Source: Acidobacteriota bacterium
GTDB taxonomy: Bacteria > Acidobacteriota > UBA890 > WLXD01
Assembly (NCBI GenBank): GCA_963666215.2
Contig: CAXWPL010000005.1
Span: 64,001 to 128,000, forward strand
Length of the DNA: 64,000 nt
Direction of reading: 5' to 3'
The notes under the pieces were generated by a model. It did no database searches. It was not told the DNA's origin and saw nothing but the letters and a program-made list of their open reading frames with translations. Within the stretch, counting starts at the first letter, position 1. Each line of letters opens with the position of its first letter. A program made the position numbers and the translations under genes. Shown here one piece after another: positions 4,151-12,204 of this stretch.

Positions 4151-6564
4151 AGGTAGCTTGGGTGATTGACGCCCTCGGCAGGGGAGGTGCTGAGGCTCTC
4201 GTGGCCCAGTACGCCGAGGCCGCGCGCTTCACGGGTATCGAGCTGCACGTGTTTGCCCTTCGGGCGTCGGGTGGCTCGGCCAACGCCACGCTGCTGCGCG
4301 ACAACGGGATCCCCTTGACCTGGATCAACTCTCGCAACCTGCGAGATCTCCGCGCCTGGCGCCTGCTGGTCGCCGCGCTCGAGGCGGCTGAGGTCGAGTT
4401 CATCCACGCGCACCTGACCTACGCCACGATTTGGTCGGCCCTGGCATCCTGGAAACTGCGCGTGCCGATGACGGCTTCGCTTCACGTCATGCCTGGTGGA
4501 AAGGACTCGACATGGGCGGATCGCGCGAGAGAACGCCTGATGTGTGCTCTGCTGCGTGCACGGGCACAGAAGACGGTCGCCGTCTCAGAGGCGACCGCGC
4601 GGGCATATGTCGAGCGCGGACTTCTTCGCCGCGAGGGGCTCGAGGTGGTTCGGAACGGCGTGCAATTGCGCGCTCCGGCGACCGCCGCGCAGCGCGCCGA
4701 AGCTCGCGCACAGTTCGGGATTCCGGAAGGCGCCCGGGTTCTTGTGAGCGTCGCGCTACTTCGGGAGGCAAAGGGCATCGGCGATCTGCTCCAGGCGATG
4801 CCACGCGTGCTCCGTACCCATCCCCGGACCATCGCCCTCATCGCCGGCGACGGACCCGATCGGCAGCGCCTTGAGGCGATAGCAAACCAGTTGGGGCTGC
4901 GCGACTGCTGCCGGTTCGTCGGTTTTCTCGAAGACGTCAGCCCGGTCCTGAGGGCAGCGGATGCGTTCGTTCACCCGTCGCGCGAAGAGGCCATGCCGGG
5001 CGCTGTCCTGGAGGCGCTGGCGGCGGCCGTCCCCGTCGTTGCAACCGCGGTCGGTGGCACGCAAGAGATCCTGACAGATGGTTCCGGAACGCTCGTGCCG
5101 CCCCGCTCGCCAGCCGCACTGGGAGAGGCCATCGTCGCGGCGTTCGACGATCCGCAGGGCACGGCGACGACGGCTCAAGAGGGGAGAGCGCGTGTGGCTG
5201 CCCGCTTCTCCGTCGGCCAGTGGGCGAAAGACCTCGCGGATCTCTACGGCCGGCTGGCGTCGGGCTGCCGACCGGCACCCGAGCAAGCCGATCGAGGCAT
5301 CGCGGCGGGATTAAGGGTGGCGGTGGTCGAGCCGGTCGGTCGCGGAGGCCTGATTCAGTACGCGTTCCAGCTTTGTCGCGCGCTCGCCGAGCAGCGCCTA
5401 CAGGTGGAGCTCATTACGTGCCGCGACTGGGAGCTTGCCAATGTCCCCAGGACCTTCGAGGCCACGACCCTGTTCGGCGAATCCGACGTGAAGCGGCGCC
5501 CTGGGCAGACCGGTGTGCGGGTGCGGCCATTCCTCCGCCTGCGCAGAGCGTTCTCGCACTACGGAAGATGGCTGCGGCTGTTGGGCTACGTCGGTTTGCG
5601 CCGGCGATACGACGTCGTCCAGCTCGGCGACATCCGCTTTCCCTTCGATGTCGTCCCGATCGTCTGCCTTCGGCTGCTGGGAGTGCGGCTGACCGATATC
5701 TGTCACAACGTCGAGCCCTTCGCCGTTGGCGGCCCGCGAGGGGGATCCTTCGGATTTGGAAGCTGGAGCCAACCGCTGTTGCGCTTGGCGTACCGGCAGT
5801 TTTCAACCGTCTTCGTCCACTATGCGGTCAATCGAGATCGCTTCCTCGCCCGGTACGAGGTCGACCGGGATCGAGTCGTCGAGATACCGCACGGCAACGA
5901 AGCGATCCTTGAGGAGGTCGCCAGCGGAGAGGGTGCCGGCGCCCTGCGGGCGGATCTCGGGATTGGCGTCGGTGATCCGGTCGTGCTGCTTCCGGGGACG
6001 CTCTCGCGCTACAAGGGCGTCGATACGTTGATCGAAGCCCTGCCGTCCCTTCTGGACCGCTTTCCCGACGCCCGAGTCGTGATTGCCGGCCATCCGTTGC
6101 CCGACTTCGATTTGGCCCGTCATAAGAGCCTGGCAGCAGCTCTCGGCGTGCATGACAGCGTCTCCTGGAACACCCGCTACCTGGAGGCCCAGGAGATCGC
6201 CTCCTGGTTGCAGATGGCGCAGTTGGTCGCGCTGCCCTACAGGCAGGCCTACCAATCCGGTGTCGCTCACCTGGCGCAAACGTTCGGCGTTCCCGTCGTC
6301 GCCACGCGAACGGGCGCGTTCGCCCAGATCCTCGAGGACACCGGATCAGGCCTCTTGGTTCCGCCCGACGATCCGCCAGCGCTGGCCAAGGCTCTGAGCG
6401 GGCTGCTCGCGGACGACCAGCTGCGGCGCGAAAAGGCACGGAACGCGACGCGCGCGGCGCACGGCCCCTTCGCGTGGTCAGAGGTCGCCGGCATCGTTCG
6501 CCGCCGCTACGAGGAGCTGCTCGCGGACGCCATCCCCCCACTCACGCGGGAGGGTTCGTCGTGA
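4147..6564 (+). CDS. Tandem double GT4 glycosyltransferase
   Basis: Two full GT-B units: MKVAWVID...GRGGAE...EAMPGAVLEA, then LRVAVVEP...YKGVDTL...QSGVAHLA. Confidence 0.88.
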   Translation: MKVAWVIDALGRGGAEALVAQYAEAARFTGIELHVFALRASGGSANATLLRDNGIPLTWINSRNLRDLRAWRLLVAALEAAEVEFIHAHLTYATIWSALASWKLRVPMTASLHVMPGGKDSTWADRARERLMCALLRARAQKTVAVSEATARAYVERGLLRREGLEVVRNGVQLRAPATAAQRAEARAQFGIPEGARVLVSVALLREAKGIGDLLQAMPRVLRTHPRTIALIAGDGPDRQRLEAIANQLGLRDCCRFVGFLEDVSPVLRAADAFVHPSREEAMPGAVLEALAAAVPVVATAVGGTQEILTDGSGTLVPPRSPAALGEAIVAAFDDPQGTATTAQEGRARVAARFSVGQWAKDLADLYGRLASGCRPAPEQADRGIAAGLRVAVVEPVGRGGLIQYAFQLCRALAEQRLQVELITCRDWELANVPRTFEATTLFGESDVKRRPGQTGVRVRPFLRLRRAFSHYGRWLRLLGYVGLRRRYDVVQLGDIRFPFDVVPIVCLRLLGVRLTDICHNVEPFAVGGPRGGSFGFGSWSQPLLRLAYRQFSTVFVHYAVNRDRFLARYEVDRDRVVEIPHGNEAILEEVASGEGAGALRADLGIGVGDPVVLLPGTLSRYKGVDTLIEALPSLLDRFPDARVVIAGHPLPDFDLARHKSLAAALGVHDSVSWNTRYLEAQEIASWLQMAQLVALPYRQAYQSGVAHLAQTFGVPVVATRTGAFAQILEDTGSGLLVPPDDPPALAKALSGLLADDQLRREKARNATRAAHGPFAWSEVAGIVRRRYEELLADAIPPLTREGSS

Positions 6565-8641: not shown

Positions 8642-8670
8642 AGGAAACCGTAGAACGGGCACTGAAGCTC

Positions 8671-9759
8671 CTATAGATCGCAAGCGGGGGAGAGAGATTC
8701 TTCCGTGTCGCGTGGTGGTGGGAGGAGGTTGTAGACCTCGCGGGCAACGTAGCGCTTGAGGCAGCGGATGATTTCCTTCTTGGAGAGGCCTTCGGTGGTG
8801 CGGCGCTCCACGTAAGCGATGGTTGGCACGTGCCATCGCATCCGGACGATCACAGCGCGGTAGAGGGCGGTATTGGCCTGCCGGTTTCCCCCTCGGTTGA
8901 GCCGATGGCGGCCGCCGGTCTTGCCGGATCCGGCCGGTATTGGGCAGACGCCACAGAGCTTGGCGAAGGCCGCTTCGGAGCGGATCCGGTCGGTGTTGTC
9001 GCCGGCAGTCACGAGGAGCTCGCCGGCGATATCGGGCCCGATCCCGAACGCGTCGAGCAGGCGGGGTGCAGTCGCGGTAGTGAGTTTCTCCAGGCGTTTG
9101 GTGTGGGTCTTGATCTCCTCGTGCAGATCAAGCCACCGTCGGGCGAGCGAGCAGAGCACGTGACGCATCGTCACGTTGGGATCAGCCGGGTCCCCGTCGC
9201 CGTCGAGCCCGACACAGGTCGTCATCAGCTTATGGTCGCTGAGCGGTTCCAGCTTCGCTCGCAACTCATCGGAGGCCGTCACCAACGTCGCCTTGAGCGT
9301 CACGATCGCCTGGGTATGGGCTTTCACGGCAGTGTTGCGGGCGATCCGGGTGAGGCGGATCGCCTCAACGGCACCGTCGGAGACCTTGGGAGTTGCCGTG
9401 GCCTGCCCGGCCAGGACCTGACGGGCTGCATGTTCGGCGTCGATCGGATCGCTCTTACCGGCGAGGCGGCGTTGCCCTGCTCGAGGTGGCCGACTGACCT
9501 CGATCACTGTCTGTGCGTGGCGCCGCAAGAACCTGGCAAGGCCCATTCCGTAGCTGCCGGTCCCCTCCACCCCGAAGACGTGGACACGACCCAAGGTCTT
9601 GGCCCACGCCAACAGCCCCGCGTAGCCGCTGTTTGTGACCGAGAGGTAGTACTCGCCGAGACGGCCACCAAGGCCGTCAATCACGACGGCGACGTGTTCG
9701 TCCTTGTGAGTGTCGACACCGACGATGACATCGGTGCGCTCGAGTGCGATGCTGGACAT
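8671..9759 (-). CDS. IS110-family recombinase/transposase
   Basis: DEDD motifs GVDTHK, GVEGTGSYG, KSDPIDA. C-terminal domain with SEAAFA, PAGSG, RLNRGGNRQAN, IIRCLKRY. RBS GAAGGAGG upstream. Confidence 0.96.
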   Translation of the reverse strand: MSSIALERTDVIVGVDTHKDEHVAVVIDGLGGRLGEYYLSVTNSGYAGLLAWAKTLGRVHVFGVEGTGSYGMGLARFLRRHAQTVIEVSRPPRAGQRRLAGKSDPIDAEHAARQVLAGQATATPKVSDGAVEAIRLTRIARNTAVKAHTQAIVTLKATLVTASDELRAKLEPLSDHKLMTTCVGLDGDGDPADPNVTMRHVLCSLARRWLDLHEEIKTHTKRLEKLTTATAPRLLDAFGIGPDIAGELLVTAGDNTDRIRSEAAFAKLCGVCPIPAGSGKTGGRHRLNRGGNRQANTALYRAVIVRMRWHVPTIAYVERRTTEGLSKKEIIRCLKRYVAREVYNLLPPPRDTEESLSPACDL

Positions 9760-9935
9760 GGCTGTTGGCCTCCTTCACGGGTCAATGGTCCAGCTCGTCG
9801 GTCGGGCGGCCAGGACAAGACTGTGATGGGACCTGTTCAGATCAGGCTCCTATGAGGTCACTGCCCGTCCGGCTGGCGAGCAGCCTGATCGGTGCGCCAC
9901 CCCAGCCGACCGACAGGTCAGTGCAAGGACACCAC

Positions 9936-11344
9936 GGGGATGTCCCACCGTCCGTTGAACTAAGGCGACGGTGAAGTGGTTGGGGATTGTTACGCAGTAC
10001 GGCGCTCCTGCTCAAGGTGAGCGTCGACGGCGGCGTTCAGTGCGGCATCGAGCTTGGCGATGTCGCGGTAGCCACGGACCCTCCGGAAGTGGCTCTCGGC
10101 CTCGATGAGCGCGGTAACCGCCCATCGAACGATCATGCTCCCGGAGCGCCATCTCTTTACGTTGCGGCTGACGTGTTTGATCGTGCCGTTGAGATTCTCG
10201 ATCGTGTTCGTTGAACGCAACGTTCGAAGCAGCGGCCCCTGCACTCCGAGCCGGGTGACGGTGAGCGTCTCTTGCATTCCTTCTCTGAGCGAGGCCGCGG
10301 CACCCGGGTGATCCGTCTCCAGCTCTTTGGCCACGGCGTCGAGCTGCTTGGTCGCTGCCGCTGCCGTCTCCGCCTTCCAGGCCTTGCGGATCTTCGCCGC
10401 GAACCAGGGCCGGATATGCCCTGGCAGATGTTCCAAGACGTTCTTGATCTTGTGGACACGGCAGCGCTGGATCAGGGCCCACTCGCCGAACGTGTCGCGC
10501 ACTGCTTTACGGAGGCCCTTGGAGCCATCGATTACCACCAACCGCGCCCGTTCGACGGGCATGCCGCGTTCAATCAACTGCCGCAGCAGCGATCGGCACA
10601 CACGTGAACTCTCGGTGGTGCCTTCTACGACGCCCAGAACATGCTTGACGCCGTCCGTATCGATGCCCATGGCGATCACCAACAGGTGCTTGCCCATGTG
10701 CGTACCGTCGATCACCAGCACCGGCAAGTCCACCTCGTTGAGTGGTTGGGCCAGGTACTGCTGCACCTGCCGGGCGGTACGCGCTACGAACCGCCGCGAC
10801 ACACTCGAGCGACTCGTCCCGGATGAAGTTCGGCCTTCGGGCAGCTGCTCCAACGAGCGCTCATACTTGCGCGTCGTGACGCCGCACAGGATCTGCTCCA
10901 CGGCGCGCTCTTCGAGCGGGTCGGTGGCCTTGAACCTCTCCCAGTGCGGCAGCGGCAGCTCTTGGCCATCGACGCTCCGAGCCCGCGGCTTGCGTACCTT
11001 GACCCGCCGGCCGCCCATCACCAGCGAGCCCTCGTCGTAGCCGTGTCGGTACGCCCGCCGCTGCTGTGACCGTGCGTGGCGTTCTCCGCATAGCTCAGCT
11101 CTGTCTTCTTCCAGCAGCGAACCCAACACCCCGAAGCCCGCGTCCATGACCAGCGCTCGTAGATCCGATCGCGCCGCTACCACTGCCTCCAGGAGCGGGT
11201 TCTCTTGGCGCTCCGCTTTCCTACTTGTCTCTGTTCTGCGACTCTTGCTCATGACGGTGATCCTCCATGCCAGTGGATTGACCCCGACACACTATCGAGG
11301 TCGGATCACCGTCACCCTTTTTCAACGGAGCCTGTGACATCCCC
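9936..11344 (-). mobile_element. IS256-family element, 1409 bp
   Basis: Imperfect IRs GGGGATGTCCCACCGTCCGTTGAA / TTCAACGGAGCCTGTGACATCCCC. 8-bp target duplication GACACCAC at 9928-9935 and 11345-11352. Confidence 0.93.
9990..11252 (-). CDS. IS256 (Mutator-type) DDE transposase
   Basis: GVTTRKY, SRSSVSR, VIDGTH, VIDGSKGL, QRCRVHKIKN, STNTIENLN. Confidence 0.93.
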   Translation of the reverse strand: MSKSRRTETSRKAERQENPLLEAVVAARSDLRALVMDAGFGVLGSLLEEDRAELCGERHARSQQRRAYRHGYDEGSLVMGGRRVKVRKPRARSVDGQELPLPHWERFKATDPLEERAVEQILCGVTTRKYERSLEQLPEGRTSSGTSRSSVSRRFVARTARQVQQYLAQPLNEVDLPVLVIDGTHMGKHLLVIAMGIDTDGVKHVLGVVEGTTESSRVCRSLLRQLIERGMPVERARLVVIDGSKGLRKAVRDTFGEWALIQRCRVHKIKNVLEHLPGHIRPWFAAKIRKAWKAETAAAATKQLDAVAKELETDHPGAAASLREGMQETLTVTRLGVQGPLLRTLRSTNTIENLNGTIKHVSRNVKRWRSGSMIVRWAVTALIEAESHFRRVRGYRDIAKLDAALNAAVDAHLEQERRTA

Positions 11345-11465
11345 GACACCACGGTCGGTCAACTTATCGGTCAGGCCGACCGGAGCAGCGCCCCAGCATC
11401 ATCACAGTCAACTTAACTTTCCGAACCTTGTCCCCGGGCAATCTTGCTTCGAGGCAGACCGCTCT

Positions 11466-12164
11466 TCAAGGGGTGGTGGCCACCTGCCAATCCATCAACG
11501 ATCGGGTACGCAGCAGTCGGTAGTGTGCTGCTCGCAAGCGGTGTCGTCCGAGTCGGAAGAGGTTGAGGATGACACCTTGCACAGCCAAAAACTGTTGAGC
11601 TTGCGACGCTGACTTGAATCTCCGCATCTGGCGTTCTCGTTGTCGAGTGGGCTGGTGCGAGGCCTCGCATCGGTTGTTCGCGTAGCGCGCAGTGACATGC
11701 TCGACCGAAGGCATCACGACATGGTGCGCGGCCCCATAACTTCTGAGCTTGTCGGTAATCAACCATCGGGGTGCACTCCCCTGCCCTTTCAGCAACTTGC
11801 GGAAGAAGCGCTTGGCCGCGCGAGCGCTACGTCGCCGCTGGACCAAGATATCGATCACATCTCCGTCCTGGTCGACCGCTCGCCACAGGTAGTGGCGCCG
11901 GCCGCGGATCCTCACGAAGACCTCGTCCAGGAACCAAGTGTCACCCAGACGACCTTGCCGCCGCCGTAGCTTGCGAGCGTAGTCAGGGCCGAACTTCGCA
12001 CACCACCGTCGAATCGTCTCGTAGGTGACCTCGACTCCGCGCTCGGCTAGGAGATCTTCCACGTCTCGGAAGCTCAGGCAGAACCGGTGGTAGAGCCAGA
12101 CGGAGTGGCTGATGATCTCGATCGGGAAACGGTGTCTGCGATATCGGCTGACGGCGTTGCTCAT
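11466..12164 (-). CDS. IS6-family DDE transposase
   Basis: YRRHRFP, SFRDVEDLLAERG, WFLDEVF, YLWRAVDQDG, ITDKLRSY, NNRCEASH. Confidence 0.96.
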   Translation of the reverse strand: MSNAVSRYRRHRFPIEIISHSVWLYHRFCLSFRDVEDLLAERGVEVTYETIRRWCAKFGPDYARKLRRRQGRLGDTWFLDEVFVRIRGRRHYLWRAVDQDGDVIDILVQRRRSARAAKRFFRKLLKGQGSAPRWLITDKLRSYGAAHHVVMPSVEHVTARYANNRCEASHQPTRQRERQMRRFKSASQAQQFLAVQGVILNLFRLGRHRLRAAHYRLLRTRSLMDWQVATTP

Positions 12165-12204
12165 GGCCGTACTCTGTCAGCAGCGCCTTTAAGTTGACAG
12201 TGCC

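Follow-up and report, generated by a model that had tools for sequence, protein, structure and literature searches.

We examined a 64,000-nt stretch of DNA from an Acidobacteriota bacterium (assembly GCA_963666215.2, contig CAXWPL010000005.1, positions 64,001-128,000), hereafter the window, whose coordinates are used throughout. Three insertion sequences (ISs) lie nested within one another at window positions 8658-12204, all read on the minus strand: an IS6-family element is interrupted by an IS110-family element, which in turn is interrupted by an element of the IS256 family (Table 1). Our subject is the IS110-family element, and in particular its non-coding leader, in which four short stretches match the two halves of the interrupted IS6 repeat and the two ends of the element itself.

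The outermost element has the attributes of the IS6 family, namely an IS6-type DDE transposase, a length of ≈0.8 kb, and short terminal inverted repeats. Its 16-bp repeats lie 804 bp apart end to end when the insert is discounted. The right repeat is split by the IS110-family element, and positions 11407-11416 joined to 8658-8663 form an exact inverted copy of the intact left repeat at 12189-12204. The plus strand of that left repeat is TTAAGTTGACAGTGCC, the same as the two IS110 flanks read across the insertion.

The IS110-family transposase combines an N-terminal DEDD (RuvC-like) domain with a C-terminal Tnp domain and matches NF033542, "IS110 family RNA-guided transposase," at 170 bits (cut-off 140). 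The layout around its gene is that of the IS110 group, with a long non-coding leader upstream, a very short right end that reaches only 7 nt past the transposase stop codon, and no terminal inverted repeats, as the left end TGTGATG... bears no inverted-repeat relation to the right end ...GGAGCTTC. The innermost element encodes a Mutator-type transposase (PF00872; NF033543 at 250 bits), has imperfect terminal inverted repeats, and is bordered by an 8-bp direct repeat, GTGGTGTC, at 11352-11345 and 9935-9928, in keeping with the 8-9 bp target duplication of the IS256 family. This IS256 is present genome-wide in 30 near-full-length copies (92-100% identity), that is, window positions 9936-11344 and 29 other places; the IS110 element is a single copy in its genome. 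The genes around the nest are ordinary and encode a glycosyltransferase, a 2-hydroxyacid dehydrogenase, and an aminotransferase.

Table 1. Features of the nested insertion sequences, in window coordinates
Feature	Position	Strand	Details
IS6 left inverted repeat, intact	12189..12204	-	Reads GGCACTGTCAACTTAA on the minus strand
IS6 transposase gene	11466..12164	-	232 aa; PF13610, E 1.3e-37; NF033587, 213 bits (cut-off 125)
Split IS6 right repeat, inner 10 bp (IS110 left target)	11407..11416	-	TTAAGTTGAC
Split IS6 right repeat, outer 6 bp (IS110 right target)	8658..8663	-	AGTGCC
Whole ISEc21-like IS110-family element	8664..11406	-	2,743 bp with IS256 and the extra repeat copy; 1,326 bp without
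IS110-family transposase gene	8671..9759	-	362 aa, uninterrupted; PF01548, 1.4e-17; PF02371, 8.5e-17
IS110 right end	8664..8674	-	ATAGGAGCTTC; transposase stop codon inside
IS256 family element	9936..11344	-	1,409 bp; interrupts the target-loop apical hairpin; transposase gene at 9990-11252
Bridge RNA leader, 5' part	11345..11406	-	Left end TGTGATGAT..., 5' stem strand, left target guide, apical hairpin
Bridge RNA, 3' part	9784..9927	-	Right target guide, 3' strand of the target-loop stem, entire donor loop
Left target guide	11358..11366	-	TAAGTTGAC; identical to the left flank 11415-11407; would pair with the bottom strand
Right target guide	9918..9924	-	GCACTGA; reverse complement of 8665-8659 (core C and AGTGC of the right flank)
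Left donor guide	9846..9853	-	ATAGGAGC; identical to the element's right end 8674-8667
Right donor guide and handshake bases	9819..9828	-	CAUCACAGUC; complements left-end TGTGATG, core C, and target GA
Possible -35 box	8678..8683	-	TTGCGA; in the circle, 17 bp from GATGAT (11403-11398, left end)

A conserved two-loop leader RNA

Deleting IS256 together with one copy of its 8-bp duplication yields a reconstructed leader of 230 nt. This removal is legitimate because the leader then aligns unbroken to uninterrupted homologues, with 82.9% identity to locus L026 (query 1-233) and ≈80% identity to loci L046 and L023 over positions 1-227. IS256 had also been set aside in a first-pass annotation of this DNA, prepared from the sequence alone, and that step is justified by these alignments. 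Single-sequence folding of the reconstructed leader gave unstable, length-dependent structures in which the guides were paired, and comparative folding was used instead. An unconstrained RNAalifold run paired the left donor guide with bases beside the right donor guide, and the alignment was refolded with guides unpaired.

The resulting alignment, A1, comprises 80 distinct homologous leaders folded with the four guide stretches kept unpaired, so that its structure is partly imposed in that guide pairing was forbidden; the helices themselves were not imposed. The fold consists of two stem-loop modules, each made up of a long outer helix, an internal loop with two guides, and a short apical hairpin. 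Its 49 pairs fall into 4 helices, and 86.8% of cells are paired; shuffled alignments give 75.7%, and shifting the partners by 1-3 columns as a control lowers the figure to 30-43%. Compensatory changes are found in 36 of the 49 pairs, and none of 500 shuffles reached the observed value of any of five measures. The leaders of this family thus share two internal loops closed by covarying helices, and the reconstructed window RNA forms 44 of the 49 consensus pairs.

A covariance model built from A1, which we term R1, matches the window at 9982-9784 with 107.3 bits (E 6.5e-28). This match takes in all of the donor loop but, of the target loop, only the 3' half; within it, the real RNA runs only from ≈9935 downwards, the remainder being the end of IS256. 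The 5' part of the leader (11345-11406) is placed by alignment to homologues, and the covariance model gives a weak partial match there (E 0.37). Such a model had been proposed in the first-pass annotation as a check on a conserved two-loop fold, and the result bears that fold out. The helix drawn there to close the first loop, GACCGATA/TGUCGGUC, fares differently: it is not a conserved helix and uses bases that are guide positions in relatives, and the closing helix of the family consensus is instead of the CUGAC/GUCGG type, pairing alignment columns 27-34 with 81-87. Release 15 of Rfam contained no relevant family for the leader at E values up to 1.

Guides that match the flanks and the ends

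In the target loop of the window leader, the left target guide occupies a guide position that is homologous across the family, and the right target guide a position homologous to the GCGTTGA of IS3-targeting relatives described below. The last base of the right target guide pairs with the element's own last T. In the donor loop, CATCACAG complements the core C and the left end, and two further bases, UC, complement the GA before the target core; positions 11409-11400 are matched in reverse complement by the whole string CATCACAGTC (9828-9819). The strings and coordinates on which the first-pass annotation had based its reading (11366-11358, 9924-9918, 9853-9846, 9828-9819, the flanks, and 12189-12204) all proved correct. 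When the leader was shuffled by mononucleotides 20,000 times, a match as long as the observed one arose 14 times for the left flank, 187 times for the right end, and 101 times for the left end, and all four guide matches together arose in none of the shuffles.

We collected relatives by transposase similarity, obtaining 79 loci from the best 80 of 410 confirmed matches in a genome collection and 80 loci from the best 80 of 466 confirmed matches in metagenomes; their identity is 56-78% over the full length. RNA motifs were located by regular expressions, and the tables omit the loci in which they were not found: 13 metagenome loci lacked the donor-loop motif, 5 lacked target-loop anchors, and a few genome loci were unusually spaced. 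The number of unique element/site combinations that remained was 118. Among these, the left guide is identical to its own flank at 7.63 of 10 positions on average, compared with 5.77 for shuffled pairings (maximum 6.17 in 200 shuffles), and the right guide matches its own flank at 5.67 of 7, compared with 5.00 (maximum 5.16). Distinct guide classes go with distinct matching flanks. The donor loop behaves in the same manner: the left donor guide and the right end agree at an A/G position in 105 of 106 unique elements, and the right donor guide has a G/A position that fits the left-end C/T in 110 of 115, with four of the five exceptions being G-T compatible. Homologues keep the ends TG(T/C)GA... 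and ...ATAGG(A/G)GC-N-TC while their flanks are unrelated. Guides in both loops therefore match, and covary with, the flanks and the elements' own ends, in the published strand polarity.

Two further observations concern the spread and form of these relatives. In a plasmid collection, relatives of the transposase, mostly at <60% identity, occur on 1,673 records, including 803 from Klebsiella and 199 from Escherichia. In one subclade, the right end lies 0.7-2.3 kb past the transposase stop codon, so that extra DNA is carried (L052, L053, L055, and L065, with right ends near 4714-4724; L068, near 6365-6375; L075, near 4731-4741). This subclade resembles the "expanded IS110" described in a 2026 preprint.

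RNA-dependent activity has been shown for ISEc21 (Siddiquee et al. 2024, Nat Commun, PMC11187229) and IS621 (Durrant et al. 2024, PMC11208160; Hiraizumi et al. 2024, PMC11208158). ISEc21 belongs to the IS110 group and has been found to depend on the leader RNA upstream of its gene (PMC11187229). For comparison we retrieved the ISEc21 copy named in that paper. Like the window element, ISEc21 has its leader upstream of the transposase gene and another insertion sequence as its target. Its transposase of 358 aa is 46% identical over 340 aa to the 362-aa window protein, which falls within the 345-385 aa reported for the ISEc21 cluster (PMC11187229), and R1, built from relatives of the window element, finds the homologous ISEc21 leader with 62.4 bits (E 3.8e-17). 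The left flank of ISEc21 ends in GAC and its right end in GTC, so that it has the "GAC^" and "-TC^" features of the window element (a caret marks the junction), and there is no target duplication. The ISEc21 junctions read ...CATAGCGAC^ and ...AGAAGGGCGTC^CAGGGAAGC, which corresponds to an H-S-D^Q-G-S site. Because the leader is found by R1, the transposases share 46% identity, and the junction features are the same, the window element belongs to the ISEc21 cluster and, judged by sequence comparison, works like ISEc21 and IS621. The two differ in target: ISEc21 inserts past the Asp codon of H-S-D in IS3 transposase genes, whereas the window element lies in a non-coding IS6 repeat and not, as is characteristic of the cluster, inside an IS3-family transposase gene.

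In IS621, 8-9 nt on the 5' side of the loop pair with the bottom strand and 4-7 nt on the 3' side with the top strand (PMC11208160, PMC11208158); the window leader has the same polarity, with a 5' guide identical to the top strand over 9 nt and a 3' guide complementary to it over 6-7 nt. Both RNAs have a target and a donor internal loop with guides of similar length. Handshake guides of IS621 pair with the other DNA after strand exchange (PMC11208160, PMC11208158), and in the window leader, two or three extra bases after the 3' guides likewise match the other DNA. IS621 differs in possessing a CT core, which the window element lacks, and in its transposase, which has 326 aa according to a preprint, compared with 362 aa here. 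The first-pass annotation had likened the leader to the bispecific bridge RNA of IS621; the polarity and the two loops agree with that comparison, while the closest characterized relative is ISEc21 and the crossover shares one C, not a CT dinucleotide. A circle-junction promoter has been reported for ISEc21 (PMC11187229), and by analogy the TTGCGA and GATGAT boxes of the window element may form such a promoter once the element is circular. Relatives conserve boxes similar to these, among them a TTGAC-like one in their right ends.

What the relatives target

The commonest guides among the relatives are (C/T)TG(T/C)TA(T/C)GAC and GCGTTGA, and the corresponding site is ...TA(C/T)GAC^AA(C/T)GC.... 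In most of the 58 listed loci, the flanks translate as ...G-D-S-Y-D^N-A-L-A-E-S.... We tested 10 left flanks, picked from these 58 loci for open 200-residue frames, and found an rve domain in all 10, ending at the junction, and HTH_21 in 9. Given these domains and the Y-D^N-A translation, the insertion point of most relatives falls inside an IS3-family transposase gene, where it parts the Asp codon from the Asn codon immediately ahead of the catalytic Glu region. Most of the closer relatives of the window element thus insert past the Asp codon of Y-D-N-A, in the genes that ISEc21 also targets. This Y-D-N-A-x-A-E site (L022-L180, e.g., L039 2172-2771 and L026 790-1389) differs from the H-S-D site reported for ISEc21.

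Other sites are used as well. Locus L119 lies in the equivalent N-D^N-P-Y-S-E site of another rve gene, as does L116 by flank translation read by eye. L075 is inside a DUF772 transposase frame, the L052 group lies ≈0.5 kb past a DDE_Tnp_1/DUF772 frame, L068 is 176 bp past an IstB_IS21 gene, and L032 is at the start of a DUF4096 frame. An assignment of L032/L033 to an R-Y-D-K motif of an IS5 transposase was wrong and was discarded, the flank being the start of the DUF4096 frame on the other strand. For L105 and L111, no Pfam family was found in any flanking frame tried.

The window element is not the only one with guides of the IS6 type. Left guides of the form A(A/C)(C/G)(C/T)TGAC occur in 28 elements besides it, and the left end could be located in 26. 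Fourteen of these 26 adjoin an IS6 transposase gene 59-76% identical to that of the window; this gene always lies on the left-end side but in either orientation, so both IS6 repeats are used. The partner repeat is found ≈785 bp away in 4 of the 14. Two more of the 26 lie in short repeat pairs without a gene, and for four the flanks are too short to judge. The homologue comparison proposed in the first-pass annotation is answered by these data: the same scaffold carries different guides that match their own flanks, and other lineages with IS6-type guides adjoin IS6 genes.

Some IS6 copies in a single Vicinamibacterales genome, together with a 106-bp pair of IS6-like repeats, have an IS110 in both repeats. 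The doubly occupied repeats are those of L081, L095, and L098 (≈780 bp left of the left end) and L093 (106 bp left), and the left ends face inwards. The right target guide of these Vicinamibacterales IS6 targeters (L080-L099), GGCUACUGAC, fits neither repeat tip exactly (AGTGCC, AATACC), as though it accommodated both of the unequal ends of their IS6.

We placed these targets on a quick maximum-likelihood tree of 102 distinct transposases, taken from 133 extracted sequences after identical ones were merged and those <320 aa dropped; one row, L044, was badly extracted and has a very long branch. The label "IS6 repeat" requires at least three changes on this tree, all nested among IS3 targeters, and as the root is not known, the three may be gains or losses. 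The window element forms one of the three IS6-repeat groups by itself; the others are L127-L129 (support 100) and a clade of 10 (support 99). The nearest rows to the window element all target IS3 or other sites.

The lineage of the window element was retargeted in nature, because its guides differ from those of most relatives, which are directed to the Y-D^N-A codons of IS3. Natural redirection has also been reported for an ISEc21 relative, ISMch6 (PMC11187229). The sites in IS3 genes and IS6 repeats have GAC^A.TGCC in common and are a few guide changes apart, and this proximity is one possible reason for the at least three changes of target.

An IS110 element probably programmed against an IS6 repeat

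We consider it highly probable that the window holds an ISEc21-like, RNA-guided IS110 element whose bridge RNA was programmed against an IS6 terminal repeat by natural retargeting and which was later broken by IS256. This reading builds on the anatomy of the locus, the covariation of the fold, the covariation of guides and flanks, and the family relations shown above. In this reading, the element comprises a DEDD/serine recombinase gene and, ahead of it, a ≈200-nt leader coding for a bridge RNA (seekRNA) with two loops. The 5' guide of the first loop represents the inner part of the IS6 terminal repeat and the 3' guide the complement of its outer tip, and the two guides of the second loop match the element's own right and left ends. 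We infer that the circular element was recombined by the RNA-loaded recombinase into the IS6 right repeat, at the C between TTAAGTTGA and AGTGCC, in an event that would have split the repeat and presumably disabled that IS6 end. Later, IS256 would have landed in the apical hairpin of the target loop, moved the target guides 1.4 kb apart, and most likely killed the element.

Several observations weigh against this interpretation. The match to the right flank is short and not significant alone, as a match of this length was reached 1,733 times in the 20,000 shuffles (where the longest right-flank match counted is a different 7-mer). The target, GA-C-AG, and the donor junction, TT-C-TG, have a single C in common at the crossover rather than a shared dinucleotide such as the CT core of IS621. 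The genome contains one IS110 copy although the partner repeat and three further exact matches to the 15-bp target are free. The closest relative, L043, which has 92% DNA identity over the 3' 773 nt but is cut off at residue 109 with its 5' end missing, has the IS3-like right flank AATGCC, and no second element with the guides of the window was found among the 159 related loci, where the highest full-length identity is 76%. Finally, no IS6 is recognizable in the long flanks of 6 of the 26 elements whose guides are of the IS6 type, and 3 of these 6 also deviate in the right flank. As to the crossover, a single C is also seen in relatives and in ISEc21, and the shared dinucleotide core belongs to IS621 and its orthologues and is not a trait of the IS110 family at large.

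The state of this copy bears on whether it could still move. The 15-bp target has 4 exact copies in the genome, 7 copies with one mismatch, and 14 with two, compared with none for the reversed control; the IS6 left repeat (12189..12204) counts among the 4, and the same 15-mer stands at 3 further places without any IS110. Because the copy is single and perfect targets are free, repeated use of the IS6 target by this exact element is not demonstrated. Another IS6-like copy in the same genome lies in pieces ≈1.4 kb apart at C4:961628-963797 (L008, L012, L013), which suggests another nested insertion. The IS256 duplication spans the loop and the 3' strand of the target-loop apical hairpin, and because IS256 sits in this hairpin, the two target guides are now 1.4 kb apart. 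The element might nevertheless have remained mobile, for example, if a long transcript still folds or the RNA halves act together. The intact 362-aa transposase frame, the intact donor loop, and the two intact ends speak for such mobility, yet the separated guides and disrupted hairpin, the lack of a second copy despite free perfect targets, and the finding that deletion of the leader in ISEc21 abolished circle formation (PMC11187229) make it unlikely. The window copy is probably dead, and, being both single and interrupted, it is a fossil rather than an active parasite; it appears to have arrived, inserted once, and then been inactivated. The first-pass annotation had described an RNA-guided IS110 that parasitizes IS6 ends, and of this description, the programming is upheld by the families, the fold, and the guides, whereas active parasitism is not, given a single, interrupted copy.

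An accidental insertion is a still weaker contender. An element programmed against IS3 could have landed once in an IS6 repeat that resembles its IS3 target, with the guide matches being coincidental. The targets do resemble each other (TATGAC^AATGCC and GTTGAC^AGTGCC, with GAC^A.TGCC in common), the element is a single genome copy, and the right flank of its nearest relative is IS3-like. The guides themselves argue otherwise, as those of the window differ from the commonest IS3-type guides at 6 of 12 left and 2 of 8 right positions, and the altered guides fit the IS6 repeat in unbroken stretches of 9 and 6 positions. The same IS6-matched changes are found in other lineages, and none of the 20,000 shuffles gave all four matches together; we therefore regard an off-target accident as very improbable. 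Least probable of all is that the ends were wrongly drawn, such that the repeat-like flanks belong to the IS110 element and the guide-flank matches are internal repeats; published IS110-family entries often have misplaced ends (PMC11187229), but joining the flanks reproduces the other IS6 repeat base for base, the 15-mer is also present at the three other places without IS110, and homologues have the same ends with unrelated flanks.

IS4321 and IS5075 target the terminal repeat of Tn21-type transposons. These elements resemble the window element in belonging to the IS110 superfamily and in using the terminal inverted repeat of another transposable element as their site. They differ in belonging to the IS1111 group, with the leader downstream of the gene, subterminal repeats, and a different family of target transposon. 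For IS4321, a defined target logo has been given (PMC11187229). We found no report in the literature of IS6-repeat targeting by IS110-family elements, in a search that did not extend to supplementary guide and target tables. The IS6 repeat described here is a new target for an otherwise known class of RNA-guided element.

In other bacteria, too, members of the IS6 family such as IS26 are important. An IS6-family element whose terminal repeat is split should lose the function of the affected end, which bears on competition between mobile elements. The window element and its relatives also document the natural rewriting of guides, with a scaffold that is ≈80% conserved, guide positions that are replaced, and an insertion site that changes with the guides. 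A single scaffold serves IS3 coding motifs, IS6 repeats, and further target classes, which makes the family a source of natural data on retargeting steps and mismatch tolerance. More interesting than the single copy in the window is the pattern across the family, in which insertion sequences make their home in other insertion sequences and the target has changed several times. We regard the evidence as evenly balanced on whether the ISEc21-like clade is a guild living on other insertion sequences (IS3, IS6, and perhaps IS5/IS1182, IS4/5, and IS21), in which the guides are directed to conserved coding motifs or ends of these hosts, and hosts are switched by mutation of the guides. If such a guild exists, its members would be natural RNA-guided inactivators of other transposons and would provide ready-made guides against IS6-type ends.

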